Assembly: GCA_035652395.1 (NCBI GenBank)
Contig: DASRDX010000012.1
Coordinates: forward strand, 23,861-87,860
From: Minisyncoccota bacterium
GTDB taxonomy: Bacteria > Patescibacteriota > Minisyncoccia > Phycocordibacterales > CAJBRS01
Reading direction: 5' to 3'
DNA length: 64,000 nucleotides
Below the pieces are notes generated by a model. The model saw only the letters and a list, made by a program, of their open reading frames with translations, was not told the origin of the DNA and ran no database searches. A program made the position numbers and the translations under genes. Positions within the stretch are counted from its first letter, which is position 1; every line of letters starts with the position of its first letter. This document shows, piece by piece, positions 4,842-51,206 of the stretch.

Positions 4842-5279
4842 CTATTTAGACGCCGGATTTTGAAGAATCTTTCGGTTTTGCCAATAGGCTGCCGTCAGCA
4901 TTATTAGCACAAATAAGAATAATGATATCCCCAGATAAACCAATCCCGGATCAAAGCAGATGGCCCAGCAGCCGGTTTGTTGGTGGTAGGCGTAATATAG
5001 GAAGCCGGCTAAGGGAAGATAAATTAGAGTTCCGATTAAAATTTTTGCCCGAAAAACCCTAGAGAATCTTGCCGTTAAAGTCATGGCTGTTAAGAAACCG
5101 CACAAACCGAGCAAGAAACAGACTTTTTGGATTAAGAGAATGGTTTTGGAGGGAAGTTCGTTAGAGTAAAACAAATTGTCGTAAAGGAAGCCGGTAGCAA
5201 GAATAATAACAATCAAGCCGAGAGTTACTGAAATCCAATAATTACTTCTTTTGGCTAACTGATGAAAAGATTCGTTCAT
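4842..5279 (-). CDS. Small polytopic membrane protein (4 TM), hypothetical
   Basis: 145-aa hydrophobic ORF. Its start overlaps the upstream gene's stop by 4 nt (ATGA-type coupling). Confidence 0.5.
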   Translation of the reverse strand: MNESFHQLAKRSNYWISVTLGLIVIILATGFLYDNLFYSNELPSKTILLIQKVCFLLGLCGFLTAMTLTARFSRVFRAKILIGTLIYLPLAGFLYYAYHQQTGCWAICFDPGLVYLGISLFLFVLIMLTAAYWQNRKILQNPASK

Positions 5280-8533: not shown

Positions 8534-8611
8534 GCGGTCATTATTGCGAATGACCCGTGAAAAGATTTTAAATGATAGTTAAAATCTTCATGAAATATGA
8601 AGAAGGAGATG

Positions 8612-10758: not shown

Positions 10759-11316
10759 AATAATTTGTTAATTGATAACTCTCTCCGGTTAATTAATACT
10801 AATGTTTTTAATTTGGAGAAAATTATCGTTACTAAACTTAACTTAATAACCGTTCTGCATAAATTTTCGACATGCAGAATTTGTATCCATTAAACGTGAA
10901 CGTTCATCGCTCAATGAATACTAAACTAATCCTTTTGCTTCATTGATCGACACAAAGCAAATGGGAAGAGTTTCGAAATGAAGACCGAATTTCTTTCAGA
11001 TCAATCGTGGGAGAACAAGGTCGTTCAGAAGTGTATTTTTACTACTTATTTAATTTTCAAAGTGCCAAGTCGATCTGTATGGGCAAATTCAAGTACGGAA
11101 AACCCCTAGATAGGAACGTTTCCCTAGCTCTAGGTAGATAAAGTATATGATTTTAAGCCCTTTATTGCAAACCAGAGTTTGTGGATAACCGCTTAAAATG
11201 ACGTAACCTCTGCCTAAATATTACATTAAAATGAGGGATTTGGCAATTTAAAGACTTTTTAAGGATACGCGAGCTATAAAAAGTTTCTACCTGGTTTAAA
11301 CAGACAAAGCCTAAAT

Positions 11317-26070: not shown

Positions 26071-28011
26071 TTATTTCACCACCTGATCATCTCCCGAATG
26101 AAAGGCCGGATCGGTGCTTAAGCGAGTAGTCAATTCTTTATTAGTATTTGTCAAAATCGTATTGGTAAAGTCATCGGTACCTTTAACCGTCGCTTCATTG
26201 ATTAAGTTGGGAGAGCTGCCAAACTGGCTGACGCTCGGCAAAAGCGAAATCTGGAAAGAAAGGCGTCGTGGCGAATTCACAAAACCGGTGCCGGCATCCA
26301 GATTTCCAACTTTCCAAGTAATTTGTTTGTTAACAGGATTAAATGTGACGTCTTCATTAGTAGGGCTAATCTTCCCGAGCCAGCTAACATAACTTGGCAA
26401 TGTAGCTGTGACTGTCACGTTATCCGCTCGATTAAAAGAATTAGTCAAAGCCCAGTTAATAGTATAGGTAGTCGGTACTTCGGCTTTTGGCGGAAGTGGG
26501 CCGCTGTTCTGGAACGGTCCAACTGAATAGACAGCTGAAGATGTCAGCAGTAAATTAGAAGCTACTTTCAGAGTGGTTGAGCCGCTAGTGTTAATGGATT
26601 GCGGAACATTTGATTCCGAAAGACGTTGGCCAGTGACACTCTCATTAAATGTAATAATTGGATTACGGAAGGAGCTCATGGTTTGATAATTAGTTGGAAC
26701 AGTTTGAAAAGTGAAGTAGACTCCTCCTTTAGCTCCCGGGCCAATATTGGCCAAATCCGGAGTGTTGGTCTGATCCCAAGTCAGAGTATTGTCGGCCGAT
26801 CGATAAAAACCTCCGCCCGCATCCACAGATGTTTTGTCCAGAATTGGTCCGTTTAATTTAACCGAGATGGACGCATTGGTAATGGAAGTATTCAGATTAT
26901 TTTTCCAATTAATGGCTCCGTGAACAAGTTGCCCGCTTTGAATAACGTGAATGGTGGCCGGATCGCCATCAAAAGTCAGTGGCGTTTGGAAAAATGGCTT
27001 GCTAATCGCTACCGTCTGAGAGGTGTTAATAAAAATGGTGCTGATGTTACTTTGACTCGAGCTTGAGGCAGTACCGGTGTAGAAATGGAAGACTCTTTGA
27101 TCGCCGTCTTCGCCGGTAATTCGTCCCGTAATAGTAATATCGCGACTTGCCCCTTTTGAAAGAGTGCCGAGATTCCAGACATTTTTCAGAAAGGTAGGAG
27201 TCGGAGTAGCATTCTCAAAGCTAAAACCAAATGGATAATCTACTTTCAAAATTAAGTTATTTAAATCTATACCGGAATTTGAAACAAGATGAGCATTAAG
27301 AGTCAGCTCTTCGTTTGAATTAATTTCTTTCAGAGAATCAATGGTTAAGGTGACGGGCGCAGAAGCGATTAAAATACTGTAATCACTTTCTTTGGAATAG
27401 ACAGCATTCGAACCGGCGATGCGGTAAGTTAGAGTCACTTTAATAGTTTGATGACTGTTTTCTTCACCGTAAAGAACAGATTTGGCCGTCTCCCTAAGAG
27501 ACTGGCCGGGATTAATAGTTTCAATTGAAAGTTGGTCGGATTTTAAGGGAGTATTAAAGTCGGCGGCACTTTTTGTTCCGTCTGGATAATCAAAGGTGAG
27601 GTCAGCCAATTGCAGCGGAATATTATTCTTGTTTGTAATTTCCACATCAATAGAAAGAGCTTGGCCGGCAGCCACAGAAACAGGCGCGATAATGGCCATA
27701 TTAATATTATTGGAAGAGACGACGTTCGAGCCACGGAAATAAACGTAGGCGGCCACGGCGATGGAAGCGACAAAGAAAATAACGGCAAAGATTAAAAGAC
27801 CGCGAAAGAAAAAACTGTATTGATTAGTGTCGGATTCGGCCCCGAGAAGAATCGGCTCTTGATCAATTGGCGGCTTTTCCCAATCTTTTTTCACCTCAAA
27901 CTCCCCTGGATGAAGCTTGCGGCGCTTAACTTCCGATGGAGGCGGATGGCTCTTTGAATAAAGGCTTTTGCGCAGTTCATTTATTTTATCCTGCTCTTCC
28001 GGCGTTGGCAT
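26071..28011 (-). CDS. Membrane-anchored large extracytoplasmic beta-rich protein, hypothetical
   Basis: 646 aa; cytoplasmic N-terminus, single TM (LLIFAVIFFVASIAVAAYVYF), then a long S/T/N-rich beta-strand domain. Confidence 0.5.
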   Translation of the reverse strand: MPTPEEQDKINELRKSLYSKSHPPPSEVKRRKLHPGEFEVKKDWEKPPIDQEPILLGAESDTNQYSFFFRGLLIFAVIFFVASIAVAAYVYFRGSNVVSSNNINMAIIAPVSVAAGQALSIDVEITNKNNIPLQLADLTFDYPDGTKSAADFNTPLKSDQLSIETINPGQSLRETAKSVLYGEENSHQTIKVTLTYRIAGSNAVYSKESDYSILIASAPVTLTIDSLKEINSNEELTLNAHLVSNSGIDLNNLILKVDYPFGFSFENATPTPTFLKNVWNLGTLSKGASRDITITGRITGEDGDQRVFHFYTGTASSSSQSNISTIFINTSQTVAISKPFFQTPLTFDGDPATIHVIQSGQLVHGAINWKNNLNTSITNASISVKLNGPILDKTSVDAGGGFYRSADNTLTWDQTNTPDLANIGPGAKGGVYFTFQTVPTNYQTMSSFRNPIITFNESVTGQRLSESNVPQSINTSGSTTLKVASNLLLTSSAVYSVGPFQNSGPLPPKAEVPTTYTINWALTNSFNRADNVTVTATLPSYVSWLGKISPTNEDVTFNPVNKQITWKVGNLDAGTGFVNSPRRLSFQISLLPSVSQFGSSPNLINEATVKGTDDFTNTILTNTNKELTTRLSTDPAFHSGDDQVVK

Positions 28012-28043
28012 GCGTAAATTATAACACGCTTGAAATTCAGCAA

Positions 28044-28640
28044 TTAAAGTTGAGATTCTCGCAGTGAAAGATTAATAGTGGAGATAGCCTCTTTACTGAC
28101 AATCCCCATTTGCTCAAGCAATTCCTGATGCCAGATTTCGGTCTGGAGGAATGGTTCGAAGGTAGAATTCTGGCCGAGATAACCGAGGGAATTCAAAATG
28201 CGGAGGACTAGAATAGCTTCGAAGTTGGAGAGCAGTTCGTTAGAGAGAAAGCGGCCACGCTCTTTGCCAGCAAAGAGCGTGGCCGCTCTCAAAATCTGAA
28301 AAAGTTCTTCATTTTTCTCTTCGCCGGCTAGTAATCGGCGAAGCAGACTAAAGACGCGAGCAAAAACATTAAACTGCTCGCGCCCCAACTCTTCATACAA
28401 ATTATTGAGTTTCGAAGCGCTGGTAATCCGCCAAACATCCTTCCCTCGCACCAGTGACAAATGACTTAACGAATAATCCTGCAAAGAATATCGCAATTTT
28501 GATTCAATCAGGCGCACGCCCTGCGCCGTGGCGTCAATCTTTCCAAGATCTCGAGTCAAAATATTGAAGTAGCGATTAGCTTCCCCGCTATTTGAACTCC
28601 CCAAAATAAATCCGTCTGTTTGATAGATGTGATGGGACAT
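28044..28640 (-). CDS. recO: DNA repair protein RecO
   Basis: N-terminal OB-fold pattern (YQTDGFILGSSNSGEANRYFNILTRDLGKIDATAQGVR); 198 aa (short). Confidence 0.65.
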   Translation of the reverse strand: MSHHIYQTDGFILGSSNSGEANRYFNILTRDLGKIDATAQGVRLIESKLRYSLQDYSLSHLSLVRGKDVWRITSASKLNNLYEELGREQFNVFARVFSLLRRLLAGEEKNEELFQILRAATLFAGKERGRFLSNELLSNFEAILVLRILNSLGYLGQNSTFEPFLQTEIWHQELLEQMGIVSKEAISTINLSLRESQL

Positions 28641-29203
28641 TATTTTGATATCTCCAATAATTTCTCTAAAACAATTGGTAGTTCATTAAAACCATCTTCC
28701 CCATTTATGTGTCCGGCGTTTTTAATAATAATTATTTCTGGATTCAATCGTTCCTTAAATAGTTGAGTATTTTCTTCAAATGGCACCACCGGATCATTAT
28801 CCGAAAAGATTGTGACTATTCTAGAAGAGCGTTTTTTTATCATTGCAAAATCAATTGGTGTCTTGAACCACGGTTCAGCTATCTCGTCTTCCCCTTCTAG
28901 GTTCATCAATGTAAACCATGGGGCTACTAATATAGTGCCCCCCATAGCGTTTCCGGGTCTAGCCAAATAACGAAGAGCGGTTTGCGTACCAATGCTATGG
29001 CCAATTAAATAGGTGTTTTTATCAGTTTTACCGATGATCTTTTCAAGCTGAGAAACCCACTTATCAATTTGAGGGGTTTCTGTCTCTGGCATATCCGGAA
29101 CCTGTACTTCAAAACCTCGAACTTCTAATTCTTTTTTCAGCCACGGAAACCAATCAGATTTCGAATCAGCTCCCCAGCCATGGATAATAATTACTCTTTT
29201 CAT
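28640..29203 (-). CDS. Alpha/beta serine hydrolase, RBBP9/YdeN-like family
   Basis: VIIIHGWGADS...YLIGHSIGT (GxSxG)...; ~190 aa, typical of the PF06821-like family. Confidence 0.65.
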   Translation of the reverse strand: MKRVIIIHGWGADSKSDWFPWLKKELEVRGFEVQVPDMPETETPQIDKWVSQLEKIIGKTDKNTYLIGHSIGTQTALRYLARPGNAMGGTILVAPWFTLMNLEGEDEIAEPWFKTPIDFAMIKKRSSRIVTIFSDNDPVVPFEENTQLFKERLNPEIIIIKNAGHINGEDGFNELPIVLEKLLEISK

Positions 29204-32200
29204 TTCATGATTTTCAATCTTACGGCCATATCTTCAATTTGAATTTCTTTTCCCTCGCCATCTTCAAACTTAATCTCCTTTAAACCGGTGGCGTGGGAAA
29301 TTTCGGTCTGGAATTTTTTAATTAGAGCCTCGCCAGCTGGGCTTGCTGAAATTACAAGCCCAGCCTTTTCTCCTACCTGTAGTCCTTCTTCTTTTCTCAA
29401 ATCTTGAATGGCTCTCATAAGTTCACGTACCTGTCCTTCTTCTTTTAATTCAGAGGTAATGTTGGTATCCAGATGAACTTCACTGTCAAGATGTTTGTCA
29501 ATATGCACCTCTTTGATGTTCAATTCATCTTTAATTAATTCCAAAAAATCTTCACCTAAACCTTTAAATTTAATTACCAACCGTTGAAGAGGCTGTCGGA
29601 CTTTAATATTCCCTTTAGCTCGCGCTTCCAAGCCAAAGGAGACAATTCTTCTAGTTTCTTCCATATCTTGAAGCAGATTTTTAGAGCTTGAAGCTGAAGG
29701 ATTAGGCCAATTTTCCAAATGTACACTTTCTTTGCCATCTTCGCCTTTCACTTTTTGATAAATATCTTCGGCTAGAAATGGCATAAATGGCGCCACTAAT
29801 TTTGAAAATTGCAGCAGAACGAAATGAATGGTGGAGAGAGCCGCCTGTTTGTCATCTTCGTCTTCACTCTTGAATCGTTCGCGGGAGCGCCGTAAATACC
29901 ATGTTGAAAGATCGTCAATGAAATTGGCAATCGGTCGAGCGGCTTTGTCCAATTCGTATTTATCCAGATTCCTTGTGATTTCATTATTTAACTCATTTAG
30001 TCGAGCAATAATCCATTGGTCTAGAATATTTTCAGATTTCGAATTTTGGACTTCGAATTTTCCGTTTTTATACAATTCGTAGAAACTGACAACATTAAGC
30101 AGTCGATTTAATACTTTTTTAGTCACTTCATCCAGCCCTTTTTCGGAAAAGGCCACTTCTTCAGCCCGCACTGCCGGAGAAGAAATCAGGAAATAACGCA
30201 AGGCATCTGCGCTGAATTTGTCGATGGTAGGCTCAAGATCTGGATAATTTTGCAGGCTTTTGGACATCTTGCGGCCATCTTCAGCTAAAATTAAGCCGTT
30301 TACTACCACATTTTTATAAGGCGACTGATCGAACAATTCATAATTCAAAACTAGAAGCGCGTAAAACCAGCCGCGGGTCTGATCCAGCCCTTCGGCGATA
30401 AAATTAGCTGGGAATATGGTCGGTTTTGCTTTACCAAAAAAGCTTTTTTTAACAGACGCAGGATCATAGGGAAAATGGAGTTTGCCGTATGGCATCGATC
30501 CCGACTCATACCAAACGTCAAAAACTTCCGGCACTCGCCTGAATTCGTCACCGCAATCACATTTCCAAGTCACCTCATCGATAAATGGTCGATGAAAGTC
30601 CAGCTGATATTTTTCATTATGTGGGATTTCAGCAAAATCAAAATTCCTAATTTCGGCGTTTGTGAGCATCCATTTATTTTCAAACTGTTTCCGCCAACTT
30701 GTTATGTCTTGATTAAAAACCCCATCTGCCCCCATCATCATTAATTCTATCGGTAAATTGTGGGAAATGATAAAAATATTTTTCCCTTTGTATTTTTTAT
30801 CAATCTCATAGAGAAATTCCATGACTCTGTTTTTTACATCTGACCAATTTTCTCCACTTTTGGGTTTTTTGATAAATCGATCTTCCCGAGAAGCAAACTG
30901 CTCATGATATTCTTTCCAGCTTTTACCCTCATACTCACCCGCATCTAATTCCCTAAGGCGTTTATCAACAATAATTTTATCTTCTGGGAGATTAAGTACT
31001 TTATTGACAATGTCCTTTGTCTCCGTTGTTCGGAAAAAATCTGAGACAGCCAATAGATCCACTTTTTGATGTTTTAAGGTTTTAGCGGCATTTTCTACTT
31101 GTTCTTTCCCTAACTTGGTTAAATGATCCTCGTTGGAATAAACAGAACTAACTAAGTTTTTAGTGTTGGCCTCAGACTGCCCGTGCCGCATCAAAAAATA
31201 ATTATTTCGTCGCGTTTTGGCTTGGATATCGGCGAGAGATCCCAAAACTTCCCGCTTTTCACATTTTTCGCATTTCCAGACCGGAATTGGGGCACCCCAA
31301 TAACGGGAACGGGAAATAGCCCAGTCACGGGCTCCTTCGAGCCAGTTACCAAAGCGATTTTCGCCAATATTTTTAGGCACCCAGTTTATTTTCTGGTTTT
31401 CGGCGACTAACTTGTCTTTAAAGTCCGTTACCCGAACAAACCATGAGGAAGTGGCGTAATTTAATAGCGGCGTCTCACAGCGCCAGCAGTGCGGATATGA
31501 GTGAACAATCTTCTCTTTGGCATAGAGAAGGTTGTGATGAGCCAGATATTTAATAATTTCTATATCAGCTTTTTGGTGATCATCTTTTGGTTTAGCTAAT
31601 TCATTAGCAAAATCTTCTACTTCTGCCTTAAATCGGCCGTTCGAATCAATGTGCTGGATAAACGGAAGTCCTTCTTTTTTGGCCAATTGAAAATCCTCAT
31701 CACCAAAAGCCGGAGCCATATGCACAATGCCTGTTCCTTCTTCGGTAGTAACAAAGTCGGCGGCATAAATTTTCCAGCCGCGTTTTTCGGCATTCGCATT
31801 CCCCTGAACATCTTTTAACGGAACATTTTGATAATAATCAAAAAGAGGTTTGTAAGGCTGACCGATTAATTCGTTAGAGCTGACATTTTTTTCGATATCG
31901 TAAGGTTTATCTTTAAAAACGCCGGCCAGTCGATCTTTGGCCACAATATAAGAAATTCCTTCACTTTCCACCTGGACATATTCAATTTTTGGATTGATGG
32001 CGAGAGCTACATTTCCGGGCAAGGTCCACGGTGTAGTGGTCCAGGCCAAGACAAAAACATCCGGTTTATTAATCAATTCGAACTTAGCGTAGACGGAAAT
32101 GTCCGTGATATCTTTATAACCCTGATTGACTTCAAAGTTTGAAAGTGGAGTGCCGCAGCGCGGACAGTATTGCATCACCAGAAAGCTCTGGTAAATGCGT

Positions 32201-32700
32201 CCTTTTTTGTCGAGCTCTTTGAAAGACCACCAAACACTTTCGGTGTAAGTCGGATCCATCGTTCGATAATCATTTTCCATGTCTACCCAACGAGCGATGC
32301 GTGGGATGATCTTCTTCCATTCGTCGGCATAACGCAAGACACTCTTTTTGGCGGCCGCATTGAATTTTTCAATACCGTACTGCTCAATGTCACGTTTGTT
32401 GTTCAGTCCCAATTCTTTCTCAATCAGATTTTCAATTGGCAAGCCGTGACAATCCCAGCCCCATTTTCGCTCCACGTGATATCCTTGCATAGTTTTGTAA
32501 CGCGGAATGACATCTTTTATAGTGTTGGGCAAAACATGGCCGAAGTGAGGCAAGCCGGTGGCAAAAGGAGGACCGTCATAAAAAACAAAATTGCCTTTCG
32601 GCGACTCTTTGGAAAGGCTTTTCTCAAAAATCTGATTTTCCTGCCAGAATTTTAGGGTTTCCTCTTCTTTTTTGGCAATTTCGCTCTTATTTAAAGCCAT
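29200..32700 (-). CDS. ileS: Isoleucyl-tRNA synthetase (type with CxxC Zn knuckle) carrying an inserted histidine-phosphatase (PGAM-like) domain
   Basis: PFATGLPHFGHVLPNT (HIGH), WTTTPWTLPGN (editing domain), KMSKSLQN. Between WKCEKCEK and WKCDCGDEF sits a ~200-aa block beginning LMRHGQSEAN and containing FIISHN. Confidence 0.9.
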   Translation of the reverse strand: MALNKSEIAKKEEETLKFWQENQIFEKSLSKESPKGNFVFYDGPPFATGLPHFGHVLPNTIKDVIPRYKTMQGYHVERKWGWDCHGLPIENLIEKELGLNNKRDIEQYGIEKFNAAAKKSVLRYADEWKKIIPRIARWVDMENDYRTMDPTYTESVWWSFKELDKKGRIYQSFLVMQYCPRCGTPLSNFEVNQGYKDITDISVYAKFELINKPDVFVLAWTTTPWTLPGNVALAINPKIEYVQVESEGISYIVAKDRLAGVFKDKPYDIEKNVSSNELIGQPYKPLFDYYQNVPLKDVQGNANAEKRGWKIYAADFVTTEEGTGIVHMAPAFGDEDFQLAKKEGLPFIQHIDSNGRFKAEVEDFANELAKPKDDHQKADIEIIKYLAHHNLLYAKEKIVHSYPHCWRCETPLLNYATSSWFVRVTDFKDKLVAENQKINWVPKNIGENRFGNWLEGARDWAISRSRYWGAPIPVWKCEKCEKREVLGSLADIQAKTRRNNYFLMRHGQSEANTKNLVSSVYSNEDHLTKLGKEQVENAAKTLKHQKVDLLAVSDFFRTTETKDIVNKVLNLPEDKIIVDKRLRELDAGEYEGKSWKEYHEQFASREDRFIKKPKSGENWSDVKNRVMEFLYEIDKKYKGKNIFIISHNLPIELMMMGADGVFNQDITSWRKQFENKWMLTNAEIRNFDFAEIPHNEKYQLDFHRPFIDEVTWKCDCGDEFRRVPEVFDVWYESGSMPYGKLHFPYDPASVKKSFFGKAKPTIFPANFIAEGLDQTRGWFYALLVLNYELFDQSPYKNVVVNGLILAEDGRKMSKSLQNYPDLEPTIDKFSADALRYFLISSPAVRAEEVAFSEKGLDEVTKKVLNRLLNVVSFYELYKNGKFEVQNSKSENILDQWIIARLNELNNEITRNLDKYELDKAARPIANFIDDLSTWYLRRSRERFKSEDEDDKQAALSTIHFVLLQFSKLVAPFMPFLAEDIYQKVKGEDGKESVHLENWPNPSASSSKNLLQDMEETRRIVSFGLEARAKGNIKVRQPLQRLVIKFKGLGEDFLELIKDELNIKEVHIDKHLDSEVHLDTNITSELKEEGQVRELMRAIQDLRKEEGLQVGEKAGLVISASPAGEALIKKFQTEISHATGLKEIKFEDGEGKEIQIEDMAVRLKIMK
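30601..31218 (-). other. Histidine phosphatase (phosphoglycerate mutase-like) domain inserted in IleRS (approx. residues 495-700)
   Basis: RHGxSExN catalytic motif (LMRHGQSEAN) and second His motif (NIFIISHNLPIEL), flanked by the two halves of the IleRS Zn-binding CxxC...CxC element. Confidence 0.7.
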
Positions 32701-32712
32701 GTATTAAGAATA

Positions 32713-34479
32713 CTACATCTTCTCGGGAACTTGAATGCCTAAAAGATATAAACCATTTTTCATGACTGTTGAGACGGATTGAGTTAAGGCTAATCTGTAA
32801 CTGGAATTTTTGTCTTCTTTATCAATGATTTTTGAGTGGGCGTAGAAATTATTAAATTCTCCAGCTAATTCAATTAAGTAAGTGGCGAGGTGATGGGGTT
32901 CCATTTCATCCAAAGCACGTTGGACAATTTCTGGGAAGCGATAGAGGTAACGTTCGAGAGAGGTGGATGGCGGAGGCGTTTCAGTAGTCGCCTCCGCCAT
33001 CATTCCCTCTTCCTTGGCCTTTCGCAAAACTGATTCAGCGCGGGTGTGAGTGTACTGAAGATACGGTCCCGAATCCCCTTCAAATGATAGAGAATTTTCA
33101 ATATCAAAAATGATATCCTTGCCAATCTTTTGTTTAAGAATTGAGTATTTAATGGCGCCGACGGCAATAATGGAAGCCAATTTAGTTTGTTCCTCTTCAT
33201 TAAAGCCGCGATCTTTCATCTTTTCTTTGGCTCGGTTTTCAATCTCAGACAAAAGCGCTTCGGCAGCGATGACTTCGCCGGTGCGGGATGACATCTTGCC
33301 GGTCGGCAATTTTAGCAGACCGTGAGAAATATGTTTGGTCTTTTCGGCTAATTTTGGATTGGTGAATTCTAAGGCTTTTAGCAGAACTTTAAAATAATCA
33401 TTGACTTCATTGGCAGTCACTACGATAGAAAGATCGTACGGGAAAACTTCGTGCTTCATTTCAGCCAAAGCAAGCTCTTTGGCTTCATAGGTTGGCAGGC
33501 CCTGACTGTTAATAAAGACGCGGGTGTGAAGTCCGGATTTTTCTTCCTTCAGGACCACAGCCCCTTCACTTTCTTCAAAGACGCCTTTCTTTAGAAATTT
33601 CGTCACTATCTCTTTGCCGCGTGGCGCCGCTACGCTCTCAAAAAAATATTGATCAAATTGCGTACCGAGCTTTTTATAGATTTCTTCAAAATACTCTAGA
33701 CTCCACTCGCGACCTTGATCATAAAACTGGTTAATCTCTTCATCAGAGCGATCATAGATTTTCTGGTTGATTGAATTGATCTCCTTTTCATTTTCCGGAG
33801 AGTCTTTAGCATGACTGGCACCGAGAGCATAGGCTTGGCCAAGGTATTTGATGCGGGAAGAGAGGGCGGCCGTTTCCGCAGGAAACGGCTCTTTCATAAA
33901 TCGAATGCCCCAAATAGCCAGCGCGACATGGCGCCCCGCATCCCCTTGATAACAAACTCTTTTAATATTCGCCGAGGCGAAAGAAATGATTCGCGAGAGG
34001 GATTCTCCGACGGCATTACTCATCAAGTGACCGATATGAAATTGTTTAAAGGGATTCGGGTCGGTGTACTCAACTAAAATCAGCCGATCTTTAAGAGTTT
34101 GATTCTGGCCGAAATTTTGGCCGCTTTTTGCCGCGGCCAAAATTTCGGCTACCCTCTCTCTAAAAAACTTGCCTGACAAATAAAAATTAATAAAACCCGC
34201 TCCCGCCACTTCGACCCTTTCAACATCAATATCTTTTTTCTCATTTAATTTTTGGGTAATCTCCACCGCCAGCGAAAGCGGCTCCTTCTTTAACTTCTTT
34301 CCCAGCACTAAAGCCACATTGGAAGAATAATCTCCATGATCAAGGTTGGTTGGATGCTCCAAAACAAATTCCGGAACTTCTAAATTCAGTTCCTTTAAAG
34401 CCACCTCTATGAGTTCTTTTAATTTCGGCACACTCATGAGTTTATTATATGCTAAATCAAAATAAAATCCGCCAATCAT
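32713..34479 (-). CDS. argS: Arginyl-tRNA synthetase
   Basis: FHIGHLMSNAVGESL (HIGH); DALR-type C-terminus. Start at 34479 overlaps the upstream stop (ATGA); an alternative start is 34437 (MSVPKLK). Confidence 0.88.
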   Translation of the reverse strand: MIGGFYFDLAYNKLMSVPKLKELIEVALKELNLEVPEFVLEHPTNLDHGDYSSNVALVLGKKLKKEPLSLAVEITQKLNEKKDIDVERVEVAGAGFINFYLSGKFFRERVAEILAAAKSGQNFGQNQTLKDRLILVEYTDPNPFKQFHIGHLMSNAVGESLSRIISFASANIKRVCYQGDAGRHVALAIWGIRFMKEPFPAETAALSSRIKYLGQAYALGASHAKDSPENEKEINSINQKIYDRSDEEINQFYDQGREWSLEYFEEIYKKLGTQFDQYFFESVAAPRGKEIVTKFLKKGVFEESEGAVVLKEEKSGLHTRVFINSQGLPTYEAKELALAEMKHEVFPYDLSIVVTANEVNDYFKVLLKALEFTNPKLAEKTKHISHGLLKLPTGKMSSRTGEVIAAEALLSEIENRAKEKMKDRGFNEEEQTKLASIIAVGAIKYSILKQKIGKDIIFDIENSLSFEGDSGPYLQYTHTRAESVLRKAKEEGMMAEATTETPPPSTSLERYLYRFPEIVQRALDEMEPHHLATYLIELAGEFNNFYAHSKIIDKEDKNSSYRLALTQSVSTVMKNGLYLLGIQVPEKM

Positions 34480-44747: not shown

Positions 44748-45677
44748 TTAACGATTTCTTTTAATTCGTTTATTACCCTTTTCAATTTTACGCATGTTCG
44801 TTTCTACCAGATTTTGAAAAAGGGCCGCTACCGTCATTGGCCCGACGCCGCCGGGTACCGGCGAGATAGCTTTTACTATTTTAGAAACATTTTTGAAATC
44901 CACATCTCCTACCATTTTCGGAGCGCTAATTTCTTCCTGAAGCTTGGTGATTTTTTTATTCTTTTTAGATGAAGGGCGGCCGGCAATTAAGTTAATACCA
45001 ACGTCGACAATCACTTGACCCTTTTTGACATGCCGAGAACCGATTAAATTCGGTACGCCGGCCGCCACCACGAGAAGATCCGCTTGGCGAGTTTGAGCAG
45101 CCAGATCTTTAGTCTGCCGATGGGCGGTAGTGATAGTGGCTCCTTCTTTTAATAAGAGGGCGGCGGTCGGTCGGCCGACTAAAGCGGAGCGGCCGACCAC
45201 CACCGCTCTCTTTCCCCGAATGGGGATACGATAATATTTAATTAAATTAAGAATGCCGCGCGGTGTAGCGCCGATTAATCCATCGTCTTCTCCGGTCCAG
45301 AGTTTTTTAACATTTTTTGAATGCAAGCCGTCCACATCTTTCTCCGGCAAAATGGTTTCAATAATTTCACTCTTGTTAAGGTGGCGCGGGATCGGCAATT
45401 GAATAATTATGCCGTCTATTCGCCGATCCTTATTTAATTTCTCGATTACCTTGATTAATTTTGATTGGGCAATTGTGGCCGAAAATTTTAAATGAGTAAC
45501 TTTTGCTCCTATTTTTTCTCCGAAAAGTTTTTTCTGCCGAATGTAAGCGCTTGATTGAGCCAGATTTCCAATCTGAACAATAGCCAAAGTTGGTTTTTGG
45601 TCTAATTTAGCGATTTTTCTTTTTAAGTCGGCGGCAAATTTATCGCGAACGACTCTGCCATCTAGTATTTTAGCCAT
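44748..45677 (-). CDS. folD: Bifunctional methylenetetrahydrofolate dehydrogenase/cyclohydrolase FolD (C-terminal basic extension)
   Basis: ILDGRVV...LAIVQIGN...SAYIRQK...IIQLPIP...VDGL...GRSALVGRP...PVPGGVGPMTVAAL. Confidence 0.9.
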   Translation of the reverse strand: MAKILDGRVVRDKFAADLKRKIAKLDQKPTLAIVQIGNLAQSSAYIRQKKLFGEKIGAKVTHLKFSATIAQSKLIKVIEKLNKDRRIDGIIIQLPIPRHLNKSEIIETILPEKDVDGLHSKNVKKLWTGEDDGLIGATPRGILNLIKYYRIPIRGKRAVVVGRSALVGRPTAALLLKEGATITTAHRQTKDLAAQTRQADLLVVAAGVPNLIGSRHVKKGQVIVDVGINLIAGRPSSKKNKKITKLQEEISAPKMVGDVDFKNVSKIVKAISPVPGGVGPMTVAALFQNLVETNMRKIEKGNKRIKRNR

Positions 45678-47028
45678 TTTGTTGCGGTTTCGGAGAATTA
45701 AGACTTTCCGTTTTTGATTCTATCCTTTTAGCTTGAACCGGGTAGATAAGAGCCTCAGCCATTTTTACCAGAATCGGCCAGACATAGGAGCTTCCTCTTA
45801 GAAGCAGGATACAAAAAGTAACACAAAAGACTCCCAGAGCGTAACCGCCAATAATATCGCTTAACCAGTGCACGCTTAAGTAAATACGGCTTGCTCCCAC
45901 CAACAACATTAACAAAAGACAGACAATTAGGAAATAAATTTTCTCTGTATTTGATTTTAGATTGCGCCTCCAGCAATGGAACAACAGCAGGCTGAAAATA
46001 GCGATTAGGGTGGCGTGGCCGCTCGGAAAGCTGAAACTATTCTCTTGGAGAATGGTACTAATTGGTCGTGGCCGGCCGATCAAAATTTTCAAAGAATATT
46101 CGCCAATGACTCCCAGATTTAAAGCGAAGAAGGACAATAAAGCGTAATACCATTCTCTCTTGTGAACGAGGTAACCGATAAATAAACAGGAAAATAGGAA
46201 AACATTTAACGGAGTTAGAAGATTGGTAATAAAAAGCATCGTCTCAGCCGCTATGGGGTTCCAAATGGTAGCAACAAGATGATTAACTAGTCTGTCAGCA
46301 TGATAAAACCAGCCACGCTCCAGAACACTATCGAGTGTTTCAGCAAAAATGTAAATGGAAAAAATATTGATGATGAGGGTGTAGACATGATATTTGCGAA
46401 AAGCGTGATGATGACGATTTATCAACCGATAAGTGTAAAAAATTATTACCGCCAAGACTATGGCTATCAGCATAATGTAATTAATGTAGCGAGCGGCGAT
46501 AGCATAACCCTGACCGACAACAAAACCAATCAAGAGATGGGATAAGTCCCAGATTAAGATAGCGACTAAATCGTAAATTAAGAATTTTCTAAAAGAAATG
46601 TTGGAAACGCCGCCAAGAAAGGGGGTAATGGAGCGAGTAATGTAGCTGAATCTGCCAAAAATTATGGCCTTTCCAGTATGTGTTTGTAATAGTCTTTCCG
46701 TTTGCGCCAGATGAGCCTCTTTCAGAAAAAAGTAGTGACCAAACTGTCTCAAAAAACGATGCCCATAAGCGTGCCCCAGTCCATAGGCTACTAAATCACC
46801 GACTAAGGCCCCGACAAAAGCGATGATAGCGGCAACCCAGAAGTTTAAAACCAAAATTTTCGCCAAAAAACCGCCTAAAATAAGGGAAATTCCACCAGGG
46901 GAAATATAACCAATAAGCGGTAAGCTCTCCAGAAAAACACTGCTGAAAATGATTAAATACCCCCAATGACTAAAAAAAGGTACTAGAATTTCAAAAAGAT
47001 TAAGATGGTGAAGATGATGCCCGAGCAT
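45670..47028 (-). CDS. DedA (VTT domain) - PAP2 phosphatase fusion membrane protein
   Basis: N-terminal ~200 aa DedA-like (GYLIIFSSVFLESLPLIGYISPG...). C-terminal PAP2 motifs: KILIGRPRP (KxxxxxxRP), FPSGHAT (PSGH), SRIYLSVHWLSD (SRxxxxxHxxxD). Confidence 0.75.
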   Translation of the reverse strand: MLGHHLHHLNLFEILVPFFSHWGYLIIFSSVFLESLPLIGYISPGGISLILGGFLAKILVLNFWVAAIIAFVGALVGDLVAYGLGHAYGHRFLRQFGHYFFLKEAHLAQTERLLQTHTGKAIIFGRFSYITRSITPFLGGVSNISFRKFLIYDLVAILIWDLSHLLIGFVVGQGYAIAARYINYIMLIAIVLAVIIFYTYRLINRHHHAFRKYHVYTLIINIFSIYIFAETLDSVLERGWFYHADRLVNHLVATIWNPIAAETMLFITNLLTPLNVFLFSCLFIGYLVHKREWYYALLSFFALNLGVIGEYSLKILIGRPRPISTILQENSFSFPSGHATLIAIFSLLLFHCWRRNLKSNTEKIYFLIVCLLLMLLVGASRIYLSVHWLSDIIGGYALGVFCVTFCILLLRGSSYVWPILVKMAEALIYPVQAKRIESKTESLNSPKPQQNG

Positions 47029-47040
47029 TTTTTCATTTTA

Positions 47041-47763
47041 TCACTTCTTTTCAGATGGATTGAGAGAGTCGGGTTCGGTTTTCGGATCAATCCGGCCATA
47101 ATCATTCCAAATTACCAGCTTCCAACCAAGATTTTCGTGCGGATCAAGCTGACGCTTGCGAAAAAAACCTCTGAATTCCGGCTCGTAGGTGCAGAGAGTG
47201 ATGCCAGCATTATTTAGTGGGTTAAGGAAAGTAAACTTAGCAAAATCGTTAGCGGTAAACTTCTCCCCTTTCTCAATGTAGCCAGCTACACATCGCAAGA
47301 ATATATGATGAGTGATGCAAAGAATCTGCTTTTCCGGTCGCGCCTCTAAAAAGCGCAATAATTTGTTGGTCCGATCCTTCAAATCGCTGAAATTTTCCTC
47401 GTCAGAATAGCGCAGGTCATTTGTATGAAAGCTTCGATCAATACGATCAAGGATGGTGGCCACTTCTGGATCCTCGGACGAGCGCCCGATAATTTCGTGA
47501 GGATTTCGACGTTCACTTAAAATCTCAATAACCTCCACTTTTTTGTCAATTTTTGAAGCAATGATTCTGGCAGTTTCCTCTGCTCGTTCGTACGGACTGG
47601 AAAAGATTATATCAACAGGAATTTTCGTAAAACGCTCGCCGACAAAAGCCGCCTGCTCTCGGCCAAGAGCGCTTAAGGGTCCCTGCCGTCCTTGGCGAAA
47701 ATTTTTGGCATTTAAAGGAGTCTCGCCGTGACGGACGAAATAAACTTGTTTCTTATCTCTCAT
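47041..47763 (-). CDS. Histidine phosphatase family protein (phosphoglycerate mutase-like)
   Basis: VYFVRHGETPLN (RHG motif) ... ILCITHHIFLR (second His). Confidence 0.75.
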   Translation of the reverse strand: MRDKKQVYFVRHGETPLNAKNFRQGRQGPLSALGREQAAFVGERFTKIPVDIIFSSPYERAEETARIIASKIDKKVEVIEILSERRNPHEIIGRSSEDPEVATILDRIDRSFHTNDLRYSDEENFSDLKDRTNKLLRFLEARPEKQILCITHHIFLRCVAGYIEKGEKFTANDFAKFTFLNPLNNAGITLCTYEPEFRGFFRKRQLDPHENLGWKLVIWNDYGRIDPKTEPDSLNPSEKK

Positions 47764-47808
47764 CTTACTATTATAACTCGGCCAACTTGTGTTAACGTTA
47801 ATATATTC

Positions 47809-48405
47809 ATGAACTTTCTGAGCCTCTATTTCCTGCCGTTTTTGTTAGCTTATAAATATTTTGCTCTTTTTTTTATTGTTTTCGTGGCCGCTTTTATTTT
47901 TCCGCTGCCTTCTACGTGGAGTTTGATCATTTCGGGCGGATTGGCCGCACATCAGTACATGAATATTTATGTGGTGATAGGAATTGGCCTTTTGGGCAAC
48001 ATCTTAGGCGATAATCTCGGCTATTTTCTGGGGAGGCTCTATGGTCGGCGTTTTTTATATCAGATTGGATTAGGCTGGATTTTCAGAAAGAAATGGTTTC
48101 AAGATCTTCAGCAGGATTTTAAAAATCATGTTCGCAAGTCAATTTTCATCAGCCGCTTTATTACCGAAATCGGGCCGGCCGTAAATCTCCTTTCGGGCCT
48201 ACGCAAGATTGAATATAGAAAATTTTTGTTTTATGAAGTGCTGGGCGAGACTTCTGACGTTCTTCTCTATGTTTTGGGGGGATATCTTTTTGGCAGAGTC
48301 TGGATTTATATTTACCCTTATTTTGGCGAGTTTTTAATAGCAGTCGTTTTAATCTGGGTCTTCTTTTTAATCTACCGTCGGAGAAAGAAAACTAGATTAA
48401 GTTAA
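47809..48405 (+). CDS. DedA family membrane protein
   Basis: Start at ATG 47809 ([11 protein letters not shown]...) rather than the overlapping track start; ...[34 protein letters not shown]... DedA core. Confidence 0.72.
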
Positions 48406-49366: not shown

Positions 49367-51133
49367 TTAATTAGTCTTACTATAGACTACTGAATTACTT
49401 GTACCACCACTATTTGTTACTGAGACATTGTAATTTCCAGCCGGAATGACGTGATTTGAGATTGAACAAGAAGGAGAGGTGTGCTGACAGGAATAATCAT
49501 CACTGTAAGGGATGTTGAAGGTTAAAGTGGCCGCGTCATACGAGTTAATATTATTCAAGCTATAGACTTCGTAATTACCGAAGTTAATTTTGTTGCCGTA
49601 ATTGTCAAAGCCGGAACCGTACAAAGTAACTTGAGTGCCATTTGGACCAGCGGATGGTGAGATGTAGCTAACATAGGGCTGAACATGATTGCCTCCCCCA
49701 GAATAGCTGCTGACATAGACTGTGGTAGAGGTTTTGGCGGTTTGACCGGAAGAATTTCTAACGGTAAAGCTAACGTTGTAAGTGCCGGAGACGTTGTATG
49801 AATGAGTGAAGCTTGAAGATTGCTGACCGGCGGCCTGGGCGGCGGCGCTGTTTTGAGAAGCCCCGCAAGAGGCGTAACTCGTGCATTGAGCGCTAGTATC
49901 TCCCCAATCAACGGAATATGTCAGCGTTCCGTTTTGAGGATCACGAGCATTAACTGTCCAAGTACCTGTCTGACCAATGGTTAGAGTGGTTGGGCCACTT
50001 AATCCGTTAATGACTGGCGCAGCGCCGGTAGTTGAAGAAGCGGAAGTGACTAAGAAGTTAACGGCATTACTTGTGCCATTAGCATTCACCACTGAAACCG
50101 CATATGTGCCGGGAGTAATCTGAACAGCGATAGCCGGACAAGCCATGCCCGGAGCACAGTAGTAACCTGCCCATTGTGGAACGGTAAAAGTTAGAATTTT
50201 TTGATTGGGACAGGAGGAGCCTTGCATGCAAGGTACGGCAATTTCCGAATAAGTTGGATTACCTACCGAATAATTTCCGAACTTAATAGTGTTTCCTGTT
50301 GAAGAAAAATTTCCATAAATTTGCACTTGAGTTCCGACCGAACCTGCTGAAGGGTTGATAGAGGTGATTGAAGGAGATCCTGAGTTAGTTCCGGAAGTGA
50401 CATTAAACGTCATTGTATTGCTCGTACCGTTTGAGTTAACTACCTTAACCATTAATGGCCCTGGTAGAACGTGAATGCCCGGAGAAAGTTGTAACCCGTC
50501 AGGAATAGTAAAGGTTAGAGAAGTGTTGCTTACAGCACTCACTTGGAGAGCTGGTAGGTTATCCAAATAAATTGTAGTGATTCCATAACCACTGAAACAA
50601 TTTCCAGTATTGGCGCTGTTCATTAGTATTGCGCAGGAAGGAAATACGGAGGAAGAATTAAGAGGGCAAGTATAACCACCGCAACCCATGCTGCCAGCAA
50701 GAAAGCCTGATCCAGTCAAGGTAACTTGAGTACCAATTGGGCCGCTTGATGGAGTAATAGAAGAAATAGAGACGCCGCTAGAAACATTGCCGCAAGTTAA
50801 TGATTGGATTTTAGCTCGGGTAAATGGACCCACAAATCCTACAGGAGAAATGCCATTAGCTCTCTGGAAATTCTGCACGGCGGCAAAAGTCAGCGGTCCG
50901 TAAGAGGCGCGACCACTAAAGGAACCGTAACCGGCTGAAACTAGAAAATTCTGTAGAACGGTAACTTGTCCGCCGGTATTAAAATCAGTGGATCCTGGAC
51001 CCATGTTATAGGTTAGGTTAACGCAGGACGAGACCGTACTAACGGTGTTGGCTGACTGACCAAAACTTGCGATTGGTAAAACTGCCACTACGGCAAGGCT
51101 CAAAATAAGCCCAAATTTGATTAGATTTTTCAT
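49367..51133 (-). CDS. Secreted/cell-surface protein: signal peptide, PG-binding-type domain, repeated IPT/TIG-like Ig domains
   Basis: MKNLIKFGLILSLAVVAVLPIASFG signal; GQVTVLQNFLVSAGY...GPLTFAAVQNFQRANGI; repeats ITPSSGPIGTQVTLTGSGF / INPSAGSVGTQVQIYGNF / ISPSAGPNGTQVTLYGSGF. Confidence 0.6.
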   Translation of the reverse strand: MKNLIKFGLILSLAVVAVLPIASFGQSANTVSTVSSCVNLTYNMGPGSTDFNTGGQVTVLQNFLVSAGYGSFSGRASYGPLTFAAVQNFQRANGISPVGFVGPFTRAKIQSLTCGNVSSGVSISSITPSSGPIGTQVTLTGSGFLAGSMGCGGYTCPLNSSSVFPSCAILMNSANTGNCFSGYGITTIYLDNLPALQVSAVSNTSLTFTIPDGLQLSPGIHVLPGPLMVKVVNSNGTSNTMTFNVTSGTNSGSPSITSINPSAGSVGTQVQIYGNFSSTGNTIKFGNYSVGNPTYSEIAVPCMQGSSCPNQKILTFTVPQWAGYYCAPGMACPAIAVQITPGTYAVSVVNANGTSNAVNFLVTSASSTTGAAPVINGLSGPTTLTIGQTGTWTVNARDPQNGTLTYSVDWGDTSAQCTSYASCGASQNSAAAQAAGQQSSSFTHSYNVSGTYNVSFTVRNSSGQTAKTSTTVYVSSYSGGGNHVQPYVSYISPSAGPNGTQVTLYGSGFDNYGNKINFGNYEVYSLNNINSYDAATLTFNIPYSDDYSCQHTSPSCSISNHVIPAGNYNVSVTNSGGTSNSVVYSKTN

Positions 51134-51206
51134 AATTATAGAGACGAAATTAGTGATTAAACCTGTCGCCTCAATTATAGCTCTAAAACCTTAAATAAAA
51201 AGCGGC

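Follow-up and report, generated by a model that had tools for sequence, protein, structure and literature searches.

As predicted from its sequence, the window (that is, the whole stretch of 64,000 nucleotides analyzed here) encodes one polypeptide that combines a complete type-2 isoleucyl-tRNA synthetase (IleRS) with a complete histidine phosphatase, the latter being nested in the zinc-knuckle hairpin of the CP3 region. The gene and the main features of the synthetase part are as follows:

29200..32700, minus strand: ileS, encoding the 1166-aa type-2 IleRS with the nested domain (public record HZS43155.1)
31219..32700, minus strand: IleRS residues 1-494, comprising the first half of the catalytic fold, the CP core, CP1 editing, CP2 and the start of CP3 (aligned to 8c8u residues 12-476)
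29200..30606, minus strand: IleRS residues 699-1166, comprising the end of CP3, the second half of the catalytic fold, the anticodon-binding domain and the type-2 C-terminal domain (DUF5915)
32536..32550, minus strand: HIGH signature (PHFGH, residues 51-55), kept in alignment A1
32023..32043, minus strand: editing-site motif WTTTPWT (residues 220-226), 99-100% conserved in A1
30256..30270, minus strand: KMSKS signature (residues 811-815), conserved in A1

Judging from its intact signature and editing motifs, the host is a functional synthetase. The isoleucine--tRNA ligase equivalog TIGR00392 matched it with 894.5 bits (cutoff 621.4) in two stretches with the insert between them. The CP1 editing motifs, which include GTGIVH (residues 322-327) and D335/D336 in addition to WTTTPWT, were conserved in the window protein, and HIGH, KMSKS, WTTTPWT, GTGxVH and the editing aspartates were also conserved across its relatives in the alignment. 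The assignment to type 2 is based on PF19302 at the C-terminus and on the best sequence and fold matches, which were IleRS2 and eukaryotic IleRS; the best solved relatives were the IleRS2 of P. megaterium (8c8u) and the enzymes of yeast (8wnd) and T. thermophilus (1ile). The window protein shares its signature motifs, CP1 editing, CP3 zinc knuckle and type-2 C-terminal domains with 8c8u, 8wnd/7d5c and 1ile. However, CP3 is short in the type-2 enzymes of known structure (in yeast, residues 459-526), whereas that of the window protein is ∼200 aa longer and forms a second enzyme. Models for acquired mupirocin resistance (MupA NF000257, 721.9; MupB NF000258, 770.7) were below their cutoff of 1900.

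The following features define the site of the insertion:

30607..31218, minus strand: insertion, residues 495-698, a linker plus the complete histidine-phosphatase domain, a single gap against 8c8u and the insert-less IleRS of loci L162, L165 and L170
31261..31272, minus strand: first half of the CP3 zinc knuckle, C477-E-K-C480, identified in the sequence
30553..30561, minus strand: second half of the CP3 zinc knuckle, C714-D-C716, identified in the sequence and alignment
31294..31332, minus strand: CP2-CP3 linker ARDWAISRSRYWG, residues 457-469, the homolog of yeast IleRS 453-465, a segment lining the tRNA-CCA/reveromycin pocket
30496..30519, minus strand: DVWYESGS, residues 728-735, where the catalytic fold resumes; its yeast homologs D527/W529 belong to the tRNA-CCA/reveromycin pocket

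When aligned with 8c8u, query residues 10-494 matched chain residues 12-476 and query residues 699-1126 matched chain residues 485-910. Because the alignment breaks between chain residues 476 and 485, residues 495-698 take the place of ∼8 residues. The original prediction had set the insert at 30601..31218 (residues 495-700); its start at residue 495 was reproduced, whereas its end has to be moved to residue 698 (30607..31218) on the basis of this alignment. It had also described two CxxC knuckle halves, which holds for the first (CEKC, C477/C480) but not for the second, since the flanking cysteines C714 and C716 form CDC and this half is therefore CxC. In insert-less relatives, the loop between the cysteine pairs measured 25-35 residues, in good agreement with the ∼30 residues stated before, and the insert size in the 120 best full-length homologs ranged from 199 to 219 aa. 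Both knuckle halves were present in 105 of the 167 relatives having both flanks and absent in 52 of them. In yeast IleRS, the lining of the tRNA-CCA/reveromycin pocket includes the ARDWxxSRxRYWG motif and the D and W of DxWxESGS, with CP3 running from one to the other. As both ends of CP3 line this pocket, the phosphatase would be anchored at the entrance to the synthetic site, close to where the CCA end of the tRNA is bound, a position that we propose with moderate confidence.

The nested domain is characterized by the following features:

30700..31197, minus strand: Pfam His_Phos_1 (PF00300) match, residues 502-667, E=1.3e-32
31180..31188, minus strand: RHG motif, R505, nucleophile H506 and G507, with R and H in 369 of 369 copies
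31030..31032, minus strand: R557, second phosphate-binding arginine, in 369 of 369 copies
30949..30951, minus strand: E584, proposed general acid, E or D in 367 of 369 copies
30760..30762, minus strand: H647, second catalytic histidine (IISHN), in 369 of 369 copies

Taken together, the insert is a compact branch-1 histidine phosphatase of the PhoE/PspA/GpgP/CobC type inside the CP3 knuckle hairpin. The PF00300 profile scored 113.5 bits (gathering cutoff 21.7), and the insert contains the motifs LMRHGQSEAN (R505-H506-G507) and IISHNLP (H647) as well as R557 and E584. It has a PGAM-like alpha/beta fold; the AF2 model of the full-length protein had a mean pLDDT of 91.7 and a pTM of 0.84, and the blocks over the insert reached 91-97 except for two near its C-terminal end (85 and 77). 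The idea from which we started, that a branch-1 histidine phosphatase with its catalytic residues kept lies within the zinc knuckle, is well borne out by R505, H506, R557 and H647, and the objection that the insert might lack a significant His_Phos_1 match falls away with E=1.3e-32. These four residues were unchanged in 369 copies of the domain, which elsewhere diverges to ∼30% identity. From this residue set, we strongly infer that the nested domain is catalytically active.

The closest likenesses were found among small enzymes of ∼200 aa that have the same RHG...R...E...H set: PhoE of Geobacillus stearothermophilus (1ebb/1h2e), the phosphoserine phosphatase PspA of Hydrogenobacter (4ij5), a glucosyl-3-phosphoglycerate phosphatase (6s2q), a riboflavin-pathway phosphatase (9mmh) and CobC (6e4b, 6nru). 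All of these are free-standing, whereas the window domain is nested in another enzyme. The insert was below the equivalog cutoffs of CobC (TIGR03162, 75.9 versus 162.9) and PspA (NF045917, 65.8 versus 350), and those of dPGM were not reached either (archaeal dPGM NF038349, 85 versus 225; other dPGM models, 33-43 versus 261-320). The term 'PGAM-like' is therefore used for the insert as a description of fold only. As no curated equivalog cutoff was reached, substrate specificity is not transferable from known phosphatases. The charge of the insert is near-neutral (median pI ∼7), which gives no hint of the substrate and was discarded as a clue to RNA binding. Compared with the synthetase core, the insert evolves more quickly and has a slightly higher AT content. 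PADLOC gave no match for the insert; a marginal match of one stand-alone relative (P0322, Aga_Cas4-like_Nuc, E=4.6e-4) was taken as chance.

The reading frame of the 1166-aa ORF is unbroken, and the identical protein was found on at least three contigs from more than one source, including the Logan assembly of SRR5581483. HZS43155.1 sits on a 209-kb contig. An assembly chimera, frameshift or pseudogene, the first two of which had been named as grounds for refuting the original prediction, could draw on a single point, the lower G+C content of the insert (35.3% versus 42.0% in the rest of the gene). However, this dip is a mild trend of the whole family, the frame and the repeated recovery of the same protein speak against an artifact, and the same junctions recur in hundreds of diverged homologs. 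The probability of such an artifact is thus negligible. A recent transfer, for which the G+C dip was considered as a sign, was rejected on the ground that the dip is mild and runs across the family.

All of the 120 best full-length homologs contained PF00133 and PF00300 together, and of the 150 best representatives at 50% identity, 115 had the flank motifs of the synthetase. We also scanned the GTDB species genomes with a hand-designed, junction-specific DNA pattern, which returned at least 120 stretches; among these, the nested architecture was verified for at least 106 species genomes. The record labels of the carriers included Paceibacteria/Parcubacteria, Magasanik-/Falkowbacteria and Peregrini-/Peribacteria. 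Thus, the survey of related IleRS that had been proposed revealed that the insertion is clade-wide and not peculiar to one genome, and that the nested architecture is old and widespread across Patescibacteria. The placement of the window in Patescibacteria, assumed in the original prediction, was correct. It should be noted that we do not claim the presence of the architecture in Saccharimonadia, as the many GTDB records labeled 'Candidatus Saccharibacteria' interleave with Paceibacteria-labeled sequences, and that our neighbor-joining trees of host and domain are sketches without support values.

The domain occurs more than once and in more than one synthetase. A second copy with intact catalytic residues was found at another CP3 site in Peribacteria. 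In five metagenome contigs, the domain was located in ValRS directly after WWGHxIP, a site homologous to that of the insertion in IleRS, and in three of the five it lay between both CxxC halves. Among the best 150 relatives, the sole non-synthetase host was one TsaC fusion. Two further genes were set aside as anecdotes: a multi-copy IleRS (P0361), which is interrupted by an in-frame TAA, and a ValRS with four copies (P0368), which also has an in-frame TAA and is known only from 3.9-kb low-coverage contigs. The ValRS and second-site results given above rest on other loci.

Three genes of the window are needed to compare the neighborhood of ileS with that in related genomes:

32713..34479, minus strand: argS, directly upstream of ileS and a conserved neighbor; relatives with the split form have the phosphatase gene in between these two
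28044..28640, minus strand: recO, a conserved downstream neighbor, by which the synteny with split-form relatives can be recognized
47041..47763, minus strand: a separate His_Phos_1 gene outside the system; it has 25% identity to the insert and branches in the domain tree as a distant outgroup

Besides the insert and the last of these genes, no further His_Phos domain was found within the window; at 25% identity, the separate gene is not a recent local duplicate of the insert, as had been argued. In some related genomes, a phosphatase of the same subfamily and the synthetase are encoded separately, with the gene order argS-hp-ileS-recO (hp being the phosphatase gene) and an insert-less ileS. 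Neighboring genes were visible on the contigs of six stand-alone relatives, and five of these (P0322, P0331, P0357, P0319 and P0370; 37-41% identical to the insert) were immediately upstream of such an ileS, with a spacing that ranged from an 11-nt overlap to a 112-nt gap. The three IleRS2 lineages in which this adjacency was observed share 35-50% identity with the window host. The existence of a split form implies that tethering is not obligatory. On the other hand, the adjacency itself may reflect inherited housekeeping synteny, because hp sits between argS and ileS and is nearer to argS in loci L168 and L170 (8 nt, versus 82-112 nt from ileS). The argS-ileS-recO type of housekeeping synteny was kept in ∼45% of loci, and the neighborhoods of the 106 fused loci contained only housekeeping genes, with no toxin, defence gene or kinase.

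The best explanation of these data, to which we would give about an even chance, is that the domain is an active phosphomonoesterase of the PhoE/PspA/CobC type that serves as a dedicated partner of IleRS and is anchored beside the tRNA-CCA pocket. By the mechanism usual in the family, H506 would attack a terminal phosphate gripped by R505, R557 and H647, E584 would donate a proton to the leaving group, and the phospho-histidine intermediate would then be hydrolysed. The role might be to strip phosphate from a small phosphorylated compound that otherwise disturbs the formation of Ile-tRNA, perhaps a by-product, substrate analogue or inhibitor present at the synthetic site. A protein or the body of an RNA is probably not the target. 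A function that every adenylate-forming synthetase would require, for example the removal of pyrophosphate, is disfavored because the MetRS, ArgRS and class II synthetase in the window have no such phosphatase domain. The repeated nesting in CP3, the same nesting in ValRS and the alternative form with adjacent genes argue that the association of IleRS and phosphatase has been selected, and we are moderately confident that the domain is a dedicated accessory and not a passenger. With regard to the coupling to aminoacylation or editing suggested in the original prediction, the hp-ileS adjacency, the repeated CP3 nesting in IleRS and ValRS and the anchoring at the tRNA-CCA pocket provide only indirect evidence for it, and nothing pointed specifically to the editing site.

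A possible, though somewhat doubtful, alternative is that the domain is a passenger, that is, a housekeeping phosphatase of metabolites (for example, of phosphoserine, sugar phosphates or cofactor precursors) without any role in aminoacylation. An ancestral operon neighbor of ileS could have been nested into a permissive surface hairpin during streamlining, with the essential host assuring its expression. The metabolic functions of the closest solved relatives (PspA, PhoE, GpgP, the riboflavin-pathway phosphatase and CobC), the conserved housekeeping cluster devoid of functionally telling genes, the split form that works untethered and the faster evolution and slightly higher AT content of the insert relative to the synthetase core are all consistent with a passenger, and so are the promiscuous fusions of Patescibacteria. 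A passenger would hardly explain, however, why this subfamily is hosted in nearly all cases by IleRS or ValRS and invariably at CP3, why a second copy with intact catalytic residues became fixed at another CP3 site, or why the association with ileS holds over IleRS2 lineages that are only 35% identical. Some observations run counter to a dedicated partner: fusions are common in these genomes, and the extra copies in IleRS and ValRS could stem from local duplication or from recombination between paralogous CP3 segments, with no need for independent selection. With respect to TsaC (Sua5), its fusion partners in these bacteria were MGMT, TruB, 2H-phosphoesterase, NUDIX and GNAT, and rarely this phosphatase; a reading of the TsaC fusion as a 'Rosetta stone' for adenylate/pyrophosphate chemistry was dropped in view of the many unrelated partners and of only four clusters with His_Phos_1.

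Other readings place the phosphatase at an RNA or protein target, or deny it a catalytic role. It is quite unlikely that the domain acts as a tRNA 3'-end phosphatase, which would free tRNA(Ile) of a 3'-phosphate or 3'-pyrophosphate when its CCA end enters the synthetase and would thereby restore chargeability to tRNA that had been blocked by ribonuclease toxins or toxSAS enzymes. To our knowledge, no branch-1 histidine phosphatase acts on RNA ends, the nearest folds are small-molecule enzymes, and the domain is not basic. In addition, PADLOC gave no match for the insert and no toxin or defence genes were nearby, a repair that serves only tRNA(Ile) or tRNA(Val) would appear incomplete, and the tether is missing in the split form. 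In favor of such a role, CP3 is anchored by residues of the tRNA-CCA pocket, the chemistry of the family needs a terminal phosphate, which such ends offer, and there is a precedent in toxSAS toxins, which pyrophosphorylate the CCA end, block aminoacylation and can be tRNA-specific (PMC11559606; bioRxiv 10.1101/2021.04.30.441581). It is very unlikely, in our analysis, that the domain would dephosphorylate IleRS itself (for example, a serine of the KMSKS loop) or tune it by sensing a phospho-metabolite via a phospho-histidine. The KMSKS signature is conserved, and the HipA family offers an analogy: HipA-family kinases phosphorylate GltX and TrpS, and HipA-type kinases inactivate class I synthetases. 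Nevertheless, the closest relatives are small-molecule phosphatases and not SixA or PGAM5, and no kinase was found among the neighboring genes. Insertions of class Ia synthetases are often structural, as is the leucine-specific domain of LeuRS, and a non-catalytic scaffold that enlarges CP3 by an extra tRNA- or partner-binding surface would fit this pattern; it is hardly credible for a domain of neutral charge whose four core catalytic residues are fixed in 369 copies while the rest falls to ∼30% identity.

Returning to a dedicated phosphomonoesterase, it is conceivable, albeit unlikely, that IleRS performs a second, translation-related catalysis that would be new among synthetases, by unblocking the CCA end of the tRNA or by destroying a phosphorylated inhibitor or by-product at the entrance to the active site. 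If true, one protein would carry out both charging and 'licensing', with the ValRS fusions and the split form as other versions of this two-enzyme system.

Few enzymes are as well conserved as the aminoacyl-tRNA synthetases, and their extra domains have repeatedly proved functional in editing, tRNA binding or signaling. A curated precedent is ileS_w_GNAT (NF040702), an IleRS with an extra catalytic N-acetyltransferase domain. That accessory domain differs from the phosphatase, and the window protein is not a member of the family (317.7 versus a cutoff of 1999) and had no Pfam match to a GNAT domain. The bifunctional RNase H/acid phosphatase (NF005567, PRK07238; Rv2228c/SCO2299 type) likewise joins a PhoE/CobC-like phosphatase to a nucleic-acid enzyme, and NF005567 was the best-scoring phosphatase-containing NCBIfam model on the insert (87 bits, far under the cutoff of 326). 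That fusion is end-to-end and has another partner, whereas the window domain is nested; we know of no clear role of its phosphatase. In 6-phosphofructo-2-kinase/fructose-2,6-bisphosphatase, the arrangement is tandem and both activities act on the same metabolite, but for IleRS a substrate shared in this way is not apparent. Our literature search found no description of a histidine phosphatase nested in IleRS, and the main text of a preprint survey of 96,219 IleRS architectures contains no mention of phosphatase, Patescibacteria, CPR or candidate phyla. As a kind, synthetases with an accessory catalytic domain are already known.

What makes the arrangement in the window protein important is that an apparently active second enzyme is found inside the catalytic body of IleRS, beside the pocket that receives the acceptor end of the tRNA, and that this holds throughout a very large radiation of uncultivated bacteria. 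The identity of its substrate could expose a step or safeguard in tRNA charging that is new, or a weak point found only in Patescibacteria. Annotation is affected as well: the window protein and at least five further relatives are named only 'class I tRNA ligase family protein' at NCBI.

The host protein was a type 2 isoleucyl-tRNA synthetase (IleRS), with the C-terminal DUF5915 domain of Pfam, and kept the HIGH, KMSKS and CP1 editing motifs. Its best sequence and fold matches were P. megaterium IleRS2, yeast IleRS and T. thermophilus IleRS. The gene and its insertion are as follows.

Host gene and insertion
29200..32700, minus strand: ileS, 1166 aa; TIGR00392 score 894.5 bits (cutoff 621.4)
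30607..31218, minus strand: insertion, residues 495–698; gap in the alignment with 8c8u (P. megaterium IleRS2 structure)

Residues 10–494 and 699–1126 aligned collinearly to chain residues 12–476 and 485–910 of 8c8u, so that residues 495–698 represent a single clean insertion, flanked by C477-x-x-C480 and C714-x-C716. This location agrees with the original prediction, which had placed a phosphoglycerate mutase (PGAM)-like domain in the zinc knuckle at 30601–31218, and residues 502–667 gave a strong match to Pfam His_Phos_1 (E=1.3e-32). The label 'PGAM-like' held for the fold and failed for identity as dPGM: the insert reached none of the curated equivalog cutoffs tested (dPGM, CobC, PspA and GpmB models) and was therefore classed as a histidine phosphatase without specificity assignment. 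The full-length AlphaFold model was confident (mean pLDDT 91.7, pTM 0.84), with pLDDT of 91–97 for the blocks of the insert except two near its C-terminal end (85 and 77). Among histidine-phosphatase folds matching the insert, PhoE (1h2e, 21.4), glucosyl-3-phosphoglycerate phosphatase (6s2q, 20.9), a riboflavin-pathway phosphatase (9mmh, 20.3) and CobC (6e4b, 19.7) outscored dPGM, FBPase-2, TIGAR and SixA. The G+C content was 35.3% in the insert (GC3 33.8%) and 42.0% in the rest of ileS (GC3 40.7%). Recent transfer was rejected as the cause, since this difference lies at the upper end of a slight tendency across the family: the insert was lower than its host in 51 of 71 related genes, with a median difference of only 1.4 percentage points.

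In yeast IleRS, CP3, the connective segment with the zinc knuckle, comprises residues 459–526, and the CP2–CP3 linker ARDWNVSRNRYWG and residues D527 and W529 form the lining of the pocket for reveromycin A and the tRNA CCA end (PMC7955072). The counterparts of these pocket segments in the window protein, ARDWAISRSRYWG at 457–469 and DVWYESGS at 728–735, bound its CP3, and the phosphatase is thus nested inside this segment. By homology to the yeast enzyme, both CP3 anchors would lie at the opening of the synthetic site. In P. megaterium numbering the insertion falls at ∼476–485, just N-terminal of the second half of the catalytic core (513–632; PMC10485003). In insert-less relatives the knuckle was intact and its loop spanned 25–35 residues precisely here, and among insert-bearing relatives both cysteine pairs were kept in about two-thirds and lost in about one-third.

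A protein identical to the window IleRS was found on at least three contigs, one of them a Logan assembly of SRR5581483, and its public record is HZS43155.1, from a Candidatus Paceibacterota MAG. PF00133 and PF00300 were both present in all of the 120 best full-length homologs (1131–1228 aa, 54–64% identical). Searched exhaustively on its own, the insert yielded 74 cluster representatives at E<1e-30, and synthetase flank motifs surrounded 115 of its best 150 relatives. When GTDB species genomes were searched with a DNA pattern for the junction (W-G-x-P-x-P-x-W, 27–33 codons, then R-H-G-E/Q), at least 120 stretches matched, in 106 of which the domain lay within a long ORF, in most cases together with clear motifs of a synthetase. 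The architecture is widespread among Patescibacteria, the fused records being labelled Paceibacteria/Parcubacteria (Nomura-, Jorgensen-, Giovannoni-, Lipton-, Zambryski-, Colwell-, Sungii- and Specht-), Magasanik-/Falkowbacteria and Peregrini-/Peribacteria. We consider the architecture, its age and its spread to be established; an assembly chimera or other artefact is practically excluded by the identical protein on several contigs and the many homologs with both domains. It should be noted that the many 'Saccharibacteria' labels were discounted, as they came from a single submission series whose sequences interleave with Paceibacteria-labelled ones. Fused ileS genes of the Patescibacteria type also occurred in MAGs labelled 'Gammaproteobacteria' or 'Spirochaetia' (L013, CAYOXM010000018.1; L022, QYPD01000003.1), which are probably mis-binned contigs or mislabelled bins.

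A comparison of 369 domain copies (nested, second-site, ValRS-borne, TsaC-fused and stand-alone) revealed that R505, H506, R557 and H647 were invariant, E584 was E or D in 367, E617 was conserved in 368 and R625 in 364, with the remainder of the domain down to ∼30–40% identity and the insert length confined to 199–219 aa. From these residues, the domain is very probably catalytically competent.

We also examined the neighbourhoods of seven stand-alone relatives, six on contigs long enough to show neighbours. Five of these six (P0322, P0331, P0357, P0319 and P0370; 37–41% identical to the insert) lay immediately 5' of an insert-less ileS encoding 931–955 aa, at spacings from an 11-nt overlap to 112 nt; the sixth, P0312, had no adjoining ileS on its 3-kb contig. 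The gene order of this split form, argS, phosphatase, ileS, (x), recO, is that of the window, and it occurred in three IleRS2 lineages with 50%, 46% and 35% identity to the window host, one of them bearing GVHH as its signature motif. Rough neighbour-joining trees, which carry no support values, grouped the nested domains with the ileS-adjacent and TsaC-fused ones in a single subfamily, distant from the stand-alone gene of the window, with split and nested hosts interleaved and the GVHH lineage basal. In this split-form lineage (L165 4596–7463, L166 1248–1502, L167 719–1171), GVHH replaces the HxGH signature, a class of alteration tied to mupirocin hyper-resistance (PMC10485003).

The domain also recurred at other sites. 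Peribacteria IleRS of 1465–1487 aa (L009, L023, L029) had one copy at the canonical site and another after the host DLHKxxVDxIxW element, a different point in CP3, with catalytic residues intact in both. By using a ValRS-specific junction pattern, we found ValRS with the domain after WWGHxIP, a site homologous to the IleRS insertion, on five metagenome contigs, in three of which it lay between the two CxxC halves of the knuckle; these domains were only ∼30–36% identical to IleRS inserts. Local duplication, or recombination between paralogous CP3 segments, is a possible origin of both the second copies and the ValRS copies. All hosts of non-stand-alone domains in the best 150 relatives were class Ia synthetases, except one TsaC fusion; MetRS, ArgRS and one class II synthetase in the window had no such domain. 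Patescibacteria TsaC/Sua5 (threonylcarbamoyl-AMP synthase; P0389–P0505) showed strikingly varied fusion partners, most commonly the MGMT DNA-binding domain (PF01035), others being TruB, 2H/cyclic phosphodiesterase, NUDIX, GNAT and methylpurine glycosylase, with this histidine phosphatase in only four clusters. One IleRS (P0361; L125 1711–4974, L126 1570–4833), which lacks the CP1 zinc knuckle, a eukaryote-like feature, had three His_Phos_1 copies at non-canonical sites, and one ValRS (P0368; L123 366–3851) had four. Both end at an in-frame TAA inside the last copy, after which clearly homologous sequence continues in frame; that of P0361 was present in two independent assemblies. Possible causes are gene decay through a nonsense mutation, readthrough and TAA recoding. 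Another IleRS (P0288), possibly chimeric or the product of a degenerate gene, has the CP3 phosphatase, an IS200-like Y1 transposase domain within CP1 and, after the catalytic core, a GNAT domain replacing the anticodon-binding part.

On balance, a dedicated partnership between phosphatase and IleRS appears probable, and we hold it with moderate confidence. The nested domain would act as a phosphomonoesterase whose putative substrate is a small phosphorylated compound near the opening of the synthetic site; this mode is tentatively the most likely one, since its closest relatives all act on small molecules and the insert is charge-neutral rather than basic. A passenger metabolic phosphatase is a possible but less probable reading. 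Fusions are frequent in these genomes, and the adjacency to ileS may partly reflect inherited synteny, because the split-form phosphatase also abuts argS (3–8 nt in L162, L168 and L170) and the argS–ileS–recO cluster is itself conserved in ∼45% of loci; against it stand the recurrence at CP3 of class Ia synthetases and an association with ileS that extends to an IleRS2 lineage only 35% identical to the window host.

A phosphatase or pyrophosphatase acting on the tRNA 3' end, for which toxSAS chemistry may be cited (PMC11559606), would suit a site near the CCA pocket, yet the non-basic domain speaks for a small compound and a PADLOC scan of the insert gave no match; we consider it unlikely. A protein phosphatase or switch is very improbable given the small-molecule relatives, and a structural module, to be set against the invariant catalytic residues, even more so.

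NCBI names HZS43155.1 only 'class I tRNA ligase family protein', despite its passing the IleRS equivalog cutoff, as it does at least five other homologs among MES2437321.1, MDD5050916.1, P0009, P0010, P0133, P0149, P0226 and P0507; some fragments are called 'broad specificity phosphatase PhoE' by JGI. The sequences are public and both Pfam domains were annotated automatically. A full-text literature search found no description of a phosphatase-bearing IleRS, and the main text of a 2026 preprint annotating 96,219 IleRS architectures has no mention of phosphatase, Patescibacteria, CPR, candidate phyla, fusion or additional domain. Accessory domains as such are already known, as in the curated IleRS-with-GNAT (NF040702); we found no earlier report of an intact histidine phosphatase within CP3, of the operon-split form or of the ValRS counterpart.

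Other genes in the window are listed below.

Other window genes
47041..47763: stand-alone His_Phos_1 gene, 25% identical to the insert
5279..8578, minus strand: large protein, 1100 aa, with a right-handed beta-helix and an LCAT-like lipase/acyltransferase domain
8896..10767 and 49370..51190, minus strand: two large proteins with peptidoglycan-binding domains, one also with PKD

The stand-alone gene is, as had been stated, not closely similar to the insert, and no third His_Phos_1 copy was present within the window. Membrane proteins lie on either side of it (45670..47028, minus; 47728..48405, plus): one is a VTT/DedA domain fused to a PAP2 lipid-phosphatase domain, and the other also has a VTT domain, its ORF lying on the strand opposite to the phosphatase gene and overlapping the 5' end of that gene. 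No informative neighbour genes were found around related fused loci. A Ser_hydrolase-family alpha/beta hydrolase (PF06821; 28640..29203, minus) was not in the 16 most widely shared neighbour clusters of related loci; its 4-nt overlap with the ileS stop codon suggests translational coupling. The 666-aa protein at 26074..28071 (minus) had no Pfam or NCBIfam match, and its counterparts in L162 and L168 gave only a faint match to CLIPPER; among 106 related loci, 38 conserve the family close to recO and ileS. The proteins at 5279..8578, 8896..10767 and 49370..51190 are probably surface or secreted proteins.
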